A stretch of DNA of 64,000 bases, taken from Schmidtea polychroa. Taxonomy: Eukaryota. The notes under the pieces were generated by a model. It searched no databases. It was not told where the DNA came from and saw only the letters and a list, made by a program, of their open reading frames with translations. Below are positions 14,077 through 14,535 of this stretch, one piece after another. The DNA lies in contig CM097885.1 in NCBI GenBank assembly GCA_044892525.1, positions 110,112,001 through 110,176,000 of the forward strand. Direction: 5' to 3'. Positions within the stretch are counted from its first letter, which is position 1. Every line of letters starts with the position of its first letter. Both the position numbers and the translations under genes were made by a program.

Positions 14077-14535
14077 TCCCCCTGCCAGCCCCAAAACCAG
14101 ATGCACCGTGGCTTCTTTCCTAACGTTATAATCTAATAACGTTAGGCCATCTTTTAATACTTTCCCGGCAAAATTAAGTCTTTGTCGCCCTGGGGGTATC
14201 CCTTCTTTTTCTTGAATTTTAGCCTTTACATTTTCAATAGTATCACTTGATTCTACTTCCAAAGTTATTGTTTTTCCTGTCAATGTCTTCACGAATATTT
14301 GCATTACACCCCTCAATCGCAAAACTAAACGCAAAGTAGACTCCTTTTGAATATTATAATCAGATAATGTTCGCCCATCTTCTAATTGTTTCCCCCCGAA
14401 AATTAATCGTTGCTGGTCAGGTGGACTACCTTCTTTATCTTGTATTTTCGCTTTAACATTTTCTATCATGTCACTAGATTCAACTTCGAGAGTAATTGTC
14501 TTCCCTATTAATGTTTTGACAAATACCCGCGCCAA
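14077..14535 (-). CDS. Di-ubiquitin fused in frame upstream of BEL Gag
   Basis: Ub1 (..[16 protein letters not shown]...LVLRLRGV) is near-canonical but ends GV. Ub2 ([11 protein letters not shown]...LVLGLAGG) is more divergent and ends GG directly before Gag. Confidence 0.95.

Follow-up and report, generated by a model that had tools for sequence, protein, structure and literature searches.

The window analysed here, a stretch of 64,000 nucleotides from Schmidtea polychroa, carries on its minus strand a non-autonomous BEL/Pao LTR element of 5.4 kb (10252-15671), the features of which are collected in Table 1. A long frame of 496 codons (15396-13906) is open from the 5' LTR through the primer-binding site into a hydrophobic leader and onward through a block in which the Pfam ubiquitin profile matches two stretches (E 2e-55), here called Ub1 and Ub2, into Gag. 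Gag was identified from a match to PF03564 (E 1.8e-8) and from three Cys/His knuckles read in the translation, and the match to an aspartic protease (E 0.003) falls short of the Pfam cut-off. The copy is broken by an in-frame stop 56 codons into Gag (13908-13906) and, as a second defect, by a frame break near 12270-12290. Pol is absent from this copy, in which neither reverse transcriptase (RT) nor PF05380, integrase or DUF5641 was found, and its place is taken by an acidic tail matching a host locus (L207) that has an open frame of more than 2000 codons and no other element sequence; the tail also matches long contigs from sequencing runs guessed to be RNA.

Table 1. Features of the BEL/Pao element in the window, in the reading direction of the minus strand
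Feature	Position	Strand	Remarks
5' LTR	14747..15671	-	925 nt, TG...CA, inserted in (TA)n run
First ATG of the long frame, inside the 5' LTR	15358..15360	-	putative start site
LTR cargo, spliced host mRNA fragment in frame with Gag	14769..15327	-	six exons of host gene L169
AATAAA, likely poly(A) signal	14776..14781	-	35 nt before LTR end
Primer-binding site for tRNA-Met(CAT), 18 nt	14729..14746	-	read through in frame as HGSRAW
AT-rich, variable, hydrophobic in-frame leader, possible membrane anchor	14584..14706	-	leaders stop-free in 74 of 88 copies
13-nt complement of the junction of polypurine tract and 3' LTR, possible RNA circularisation element	14571..14583	-
IRGG, derived from IKNK, not a ubiquitin end	14536..14547	-	from copy survey
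Single Leu between IRGG and Ub1	14533-14535	-
Ub1, recent host polyubiquitin patch, RGV end in window copy	14305..14532	-	93.9% identity to unit 2 of host gene L124
Recent host polyubiquitin patch, approximate extent	14212..14520	-	unit 2 codon ~5 to unit 3 codon 31; from informative sites against L201
Ub2, N-terminal part new, C-terminal part old, LGLAGG end abutting Gag	14077..14304	-
BEL/Pao Gag (DUF1759, three Cys/His knuckles) and aspartic protease	12293..14076	-
Acidic tail patch replacing pol	11479..12179	-	from long host open frame
Polypurine tract	11176..11187	-
3' LTR	10252..11175	-	924 nt; cargo same as 5' LTR

The element resembles the Belpaoviridae (BEL/Pao) in its TG...CA LTRs, tRNA primer site, DUF1759 Gag and 5-bp target duplications, these being present in several copies and that of the window copy being unreadable within the (TA)n run. 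It also resembles them in the arrangement of protease, RT, RNase H and integrase (PR-RT-RH-IN) in one frame, which was found in the pol-bearing partner family (L100), and among relatives of the window Gag lineage pol is present but broken at three loci (L058, L200 and L201). It differs from them in that the frame starts inside the LTR, in patches of host mRNA, and in that ubiquitin precedes Gag. Compared by description only, the element is possibly one of the two planarian Flow families described in PMC3118150, two being also the number of pol lineages in this genome; the word 'ubiquitin' occurs 0 times in the main text of that paper.

The LTR pair differs in 6 of 925 columns. Despite differences in cargo, 65 of 88 copies have the AATAAA signal at -35 from the LTR end and 7 have it at -41. 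The pol-bearing family has, at a like position of its leader, a different 16-nt complement to the junction of polypurine tract and 3' LTR, and we take this complementarity to resemble the RNA circularisation of the Ty1 type. Many copies of the element sit in (TA)n or (ATT)n runs, and head-to-tail arrays with a common LTR were seen at L063, L068, L069 and G000:C1:233.50-233.51 Mb. The tRNA-Met(CAT) gene forms a tandem array with a period of 454 nt (L184; G000:C1:79.32-79.39 Mb), and its pattern has 1247 matches genome-wide.

Other elements share the window. A Gypsy frame of 3334 codons (47190-57194, plus strand) encodes Gag, with a weak ubiquitin-like match, a BCL2-like motif that was recognised by eye and a mononegavirus-type fusion glycoprotein between gag and protease, and then RT, RH and IN; this layout agrees with that of Burro in PMC6431247 and is of a known kind. 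The giant Burro elements of planarians are like the BEL/Pao element in uniting ubiquitin/SUMO-like and other host-like domains in one polyprotein, but they belong to the Gypsy superfamily and their ubiquitin-like domains are distant, lie after Gag and are given no role as a GG cleavage linker in the accessible part of their description (PMC6431247). There are also a hAT transposase frame with a BED finger (26752-28656, plus strand) and, recognised by eye, a second, split hAT-like transposase (41740-43659, plus strand) and an integrase-like fragment adjoining the element (about 8200-8500, minus strand).

Mosaic origin and unequal constraint of the two ubiquitin units

Of its 76 residues, Ub1 has 9 that are changed relative to host ubiquitin (M1A, Q2R, I3V, T9I, T22M, I36S, A46G, H68R and G76V), the first of these changes having deprived it of Met1, and Ub2 has 14 of 76 (among them I44N, R72G and R74A). 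The first-pass annotation had described a near-canonical Ub1 in which GG has become GV, and a diverged Ub2 that keeps GG right before Gag, and both descriptions hold for the window copy. It had also read the block as captured host ubiquitin, a reading borne out by the host tri-ubiquitin gene L124, which is the source of the Ub1 patch: window Ub1 is 93.9% identical to unit 2 of this gene and 75-80% identical to the eight other units compared, and Ub2 tracks unit 3 at its start and then diverges. A single ubiquitin is present in older relatives of the same Gag lineage, namely L134, L135 and, with pol but broken, L200 and L201. The sites that distinguish L201 from the host show window Ub2 to be host-like at 21 of 22 up to codon 31, and beyond it to be L201-like at 27 of 40, host-like at 6 and like neither at 7; Ub1 of a basal copy is L201-like at codon 1 and host-like at 60 of the next 62 sites. 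This site pattern indicates that an older single ubiquitin received a patch of about 310 nt from host polyubiquitin, out of register by one repeat, and on these comparisons the di-ubiquitin is a mosaic of a recent host patch inside an older unit. The comparison with host polyubiquitin by which the first-pass annotation had hoped to date the capture thus gives two ages, a recent one for Ub1 and an old one for the C-terminal part of Ub2. An old, conserved Ub1, as read from saturated synonymous sites against L120-L122, was considered and rejected, the true source gene being L124.

The second unit, Ub1, arose later in the window lineage, most likely by the reverse transcriptase switching out of register onto host polyubiquitin mRNA and back, and both ends of the patch fall in homologous ubiquitin sequence. 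Template switching onto mRNA is a described mechanism of retroposition (PMC5131818), and switching onto packaged mRNA is the likely route of the Ub1 patch.

Two further arrangements were noted among the relatives. A broken copy with both di-ubiquitin and pol (L058, L109 and L070; G000:C2:130.127-130.142 Mb) looks recombinant, its Gag being 96% identical to that of the pol-less family over residues 1-310 and 53% identical thereafter, and it contains a long unrelated insertion. A distant decayed relative (L196, about 4936-5200, minus strand), with a Gag about 30% identical, reads RLGGV just before MQIFVK and is possibly an independent polyubiquitin capture.

The block is no one-off insertion, the outcome that would have spoken against the first-pass annotation, since all 40 scored DNA matches (out of 560 candidates) contain it at 91-100% identity and an exact-flank pattern over the Ub1-Ub2 junction was found at 90 places, namely one host gene and 89 element junctions. 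These 89 junctions read GG in 72 cases, GV in 14 and GE, RG or DG in 3; of 62 matches to the Ub2-Gag junction, 59 have GG. After dropping 6 tandem or duplicate copies, 74 were aligned, many of them with an internal deletion in Gag, and the 68 with a full di-ubiquitin were used for further counts. In the copy tree GV is confined to the most derived group (13 of 37 rows there) and needs 7 changes, and Ub1 retains the canonical LRLRGG tail in 47 of 68 copies; judged from this distribution, GG is the ancestral Ub1-Ub2 junction and GV a late variant.

Examination of ω values, counted in the 68 copies on changes common to at least two or at least three copies, pointed to different constraints in the two units. 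The values were 1.07 and 0.57, respectively, for Ub1, 0.30 and 0.16 for Ub2, and 0.21 and 0.17 for the first 100 codons of Gag, from which Ub2 shows no difference; the contrast between Ub1 and Ub2 gave Fisher P values of 0.01 (at least two copies) and 0.07 (at least three). Ub1 thus appears to drift near neutrally and Ub2 to be constrained like Gag, and Ub1 is near-canonical because it is young and not because it has been preserved, so that we regard it as a tolerated passenger.

The IRGG motif that the first-pass annotation had noted just upstream of Ub1 is indeed there, but it does not qualify as a cut site. It occurs in 46 of 68 copies, seven others, basal copies among them, having IKNKL, and the sequences encoding IKNKLAQI and IRGGLARV differ by 8 nucleotides, each an A-to-G change, a pattern that suggests editing of the ADAR type. 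The motif also lies one residue out of register. An ordinary site for deubiquitinases (DUBs) needs a ubiquitin fold in front of the cut, and since none precedes IRGG we do not consider it to be such a site. It is the ubiquitin fold that the S1 site of these enzymes recognises (PMC10611586).

These results weigh against the first-pass interpretation that host DUBs cut at IRGG and after the GG of Ub2, freeing a linear di-ubiquitin with a built-in uncleavable junction that would disturb host ubiquitin signalling. G76V is a known uncleavable change (PMC3507821), present in the 14 copies of the young group, but a junction that is ancestrally GG, a Ub1 that drifts, an I44N change in Ub2, an IRGG of late appearance and the single unit of most pol-bearing relatives leave this interpretation largely refuted by the copy survey and, in our opinion, barely credible. 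Profiles for linear-chain readers and OTULIN (PF16516 and PF16218) gave 0 matches, and the controls gave none either. The first-pass interpretation was therefore half right: the capture, its spread through the family and its presence in pol-bearing relatives stand, while the uncleavable junction and the di-ubiquitin mimic are not supported.

Host mRNA pieces in the LTR and leader

What the first-pass annotation had missed is that the frame starts in host-mRNA patches of the 5' LTR, which is to say in that which a cleavable linker would cut away. LTR middles vary between copies and fall into 10 cargo groups. Of 66 cargoes, 45 have no stop over 150 codons in the Gag frame, as against 2, 0, 0, 0 and 0 in the other frames; of 88 leaders, 74 lack a stop in the Gag frame, as against 2 and 3 in the others. 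The frame is not open everywhere: stops occur in 21 of the 66 cargoes, and of the 88 leaders 66 are in frame with ubiquitin and 22 are not. Over the 12 leader types surveyed, the leader lengths present in at least three copies are in frame in 6 of 7 cases, and shuffled leaders of five types were stop-free in 0.5-7% of trials.

Captured pieces of eight Pfam families lie in the Gag frame, and the cargoes read in that frame include parts of a dual-specificity phosphatase, a Ras-family GTPase, a proteasome subunit, a LIM protein, a chaperonin and cofilin. The window cargo joins, with the introns gone, six exons of host gene L169, to which they are 95-99% identical, and the protein it encodes has no homologue in Pfam or the protein database. 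The host parent of the DUSP12-like cargo was not among 13 candidate loci. A DEAD-box helicase fragment (PF00270, E 6e-10) has been inserted in frame in the leader after the primer-binding site at L155, L156 and L162, which makes the leader a capture site as well. The LTR region of L134 and L135 contains, in the Gag frame, a WD40-like fragment that has no Pfam match and presumably resembles RACK1. Elements with and without pol have the same cargo in their LTRs (L103, L106, L111, L119 and the window; about 97% identity in the first three), and because their Gags are only 35% identical we conclude that LTRs have been exchanged between the families.

Intron-less, sense-strand and partial host mRNAs, chimeras of several genes and further rounds of copying are features shared with LTR-mediated retroposition as described by Tan et al. 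(PMC5131818), who include one case due to a Pao element. In their cases, as far as the accessible text describes them, the captures replace internal open reading frames, whereas here they gather in the LTR and the leader, where they follow the Gag frame, and there is exchange between families with and without pol.

A long R region that includes the cargo is likely, with translation probably starting at an ATG in the LTR. It is conceivable that the cargo is not translated with Gag, the start being in the leader or at the Met of Ub2, or the leader being spliced out, and that ubiquitin acts as in the fusions to ribosomal proteins, boosting expression and setting the residue at the N-end. Met codons do occur within leaders, most copies have a donor-like AAG|GTA after the primer-binding site, and an AG follows the AT-rich stretch. 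We nevertheless find such a downstream start quite unlikely, as cargo and leader stay open in the Gag frame, the recurrent leader lengths mostly preserve it and the DEAD-box fragment entered in frame. Contigs from runs guessed to be RNA or of unknown kind, weak evidence that gives no start, strand or level and cannot exclude a leader intron, contained no transcription start and no splice joint fitting an intron in the leader (14710-14571). Among sequencing runs recorded as RNA, none was found to contain this stretch.

The ubiquitin tail before Gag and its predicted cleavage

The ubiquitin adjoining Gag extends well beyond the window family. A search of the genome with the profile of the Pao RNase H (PF05380) gave 150 matches, and 19 of the 20 regions fetched belong to one family (L100) with a single ubiquitin before Gag, which ends in LRLCGG in the copies read and carries the changes R74C, R42M, V70S and I44V. 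The Gag of this family, 35% identical to that of the window family, is followed by PR, RT, RH and IN, all within a single frame of at most about 2200 codons, so that the fusion, which the first-pass annotation had proposed to seek in autonomous members, does exist in pol-bearing relatives. A HMMER search with this Gag over 1.84 billion representatives returned 4794 proteins; among the best 150, six have ubiquitin directly before Gag and a seventh starts with the tail alone, and the other 143, many of them cut at the N-terminus, have no ubiquitin or such tail before Gag. A Gag search among long proteins gave 16 relatives, with ubiquitin in 0 of them. In a quick tree of 110 Gag cores with long branches, from which 3 of the 9 ubiquitin rows were left out as too short, the 6 ubiquitin rows are separated from 48 rows with long ubiquitin-free N-termini by a branch with an SH-aLRT value of 95. 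A single old ubiquitin capture, putatively common to the clade, would fit this tree.

The tails of nine lineages (the window, L100, P0224, P0155, P0212, P0137, P0138, P0216 and P0145) were compared. They read LGLAGG, LRLCGG, LRLRGG twice (P0224 and P0212), LNLYGG, LKLRGG, LRLKGG, FKLKGG and MRLKEG, giving the consensus [LMF]xLxGG, in which residue 71 is hydrophobic and residue 73 is Leu in all nine and GG is kept in eight, the exception being the EG of P0138, while positions 72 and 74 vary. The residue after the tail is S, N, G or M and never Pro. The Gag-adjacent ubiquitin lacks Met1 in L100, L134, L201, P0155, P0212 and P0138, hence translation must start upstream of it there, and P0155 reads GSRA ahead of its ubiquitin, the same peptide as that encoded by the window primer site, so that read-through initiated in the LTR may be clade-wide.

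Taking the continuous frame, the selection pattern and the conserved tail together, we estimate a probability of about 0.6 that the LTR cargo, leader, ubiquitin and Gag form one translated frame and that host DUBs cut after the GG of the Gag-adjacent ubiquitin to free Gag. The precursor would be cargo-leader-ubiquitin-Gag(-Pol), and the cut would give Gag a fixed N-terminus whatever cargo lies ahead; a Ub1 ending in GG would offer a second cut, and copies with GV would rely on Ub2 alone. In USP36, Leu71 and Leu73 of ubiquitin are seated in hydrophobic pockets and the terminal diGly is needed (PMC10611586), and because these anchored residues are the conserved positions of the tail we count them in favour of DUB cleavage, though Leu71 and Leu73 may instead be kept for the fold. 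USP36 also contacts Arg72 and Arg74 (PMC10611586), and with these two and Ile44 lost in Ub2 cutting may be slow or need a cross-reactive DUB.

The same losses (R72G, R74A and I44N in Ub2; R74C, R42M and V70S in the pol-bearing family) remove usual DUB contacts and would suit a ubiquitin that is not cut by host DUBs and serves as a stable folded spacer insulating Gag from the cargo, with GG as a flexible hinge or with the aspartic protease that the element encodes cutting nearby. We consider this unlikely, since Leu73 and Gly-Gly stand in exact ubiquitin register in 8 of 9 distant lineages, two of them with LRLRGG complete, and a hinge would not require this. The ubiquitin might also stay on Gag as a signal, either a degron limiting the Gag level or a tag recruiting ESCRT for budding. 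ESCRT has a role in the budding of ubiquitin-Gag fusions, and the hydrophobic leader could bring the precursor to membranes. An uncleavable N-terminal ubiquitin, such as that with G76V, drives degradation (PMC3507821), but the GG is here kept and not lost, and receptors of this kind read the Ile44 patch, which has changed (I44N in Ub2; I44V and V70S in L100); this makes a retained signal very improbable.

Cleavage by host DUBs has precedents in other systems. In the cytopathogenic pestiviruses BVDV Osloss and CP Rit (PMC8310069), ubiquitin from host mRNA likewise lies in frame in a polyprotein, with an altered N-terminus and GG before the released protein, and pestivirus ubiquitin without its first three residues (MQI) is still cleaved by cellular hydrolases. 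As in these viruses, an in-frame, host-derived ubiquitin with diGly stands here directly before Gag, but the canonical LRLRGG tail is found neither in Ub2 (LGLAGG) nor in L100 (LRLCGG). According to the accessible text of PMC8310069, pestivirus insertions belong to individual strains, are canonical and have been shown to be cleaved, whereas the unit before Gag belongs to a retroelement, is old, clade-wide and diverged at positions 72 and 74, and is only predicted to be cut. Fubi-S30 and the ubiquitin-ribosomal protein fusions (PMC10611586) also have an N-terminal ubiquitin-fold unit with a divergent surface that a host USP removes after diGly, as we suppose for the element; in those host genes the unit forms the actual N-terminus, and in the element it is internal, behind a variable leader. 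The literature searched, which included few subscription journals, contained no ubiquitin-Gag fusion in BEL/Pao, no captures inside BEL/Pao LTRs and no report of a ubiquitin processing signal as a fixed trait of LTR elements.

Placing these results into a wider model, we propose tentatively, and at slightly less than even odds, that in a clade of BEL/Pao elements a ubiquitin captured long ago serves as an uncoupler before Gag, cleaved by host DUBs, and that the 5' LTR and leader, thereby released from constraint, have turned into a translated cassette which samples and shuffles pieces of host mRNA in frame, exchanges these pieces between pol-bearing and pol-less families and spreads them through the genome as LTRs. 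Many of the 150 phosphatase matches (PF00782) lie at element positions, and these LTRs therefore inflate gene-family searches in this genome. Repeated capture of mRNA can be traced in this element, one instance being an old ubiquitin of which part has been replaced by a new copy from the host. Should the cut be real, a retroelement lineage would hand the maturation of its Gag to the deubiquitinases of the host, and this would explain how its LTR can carry freely exchanged in-frame mosaics of host genes without harm to Gag.
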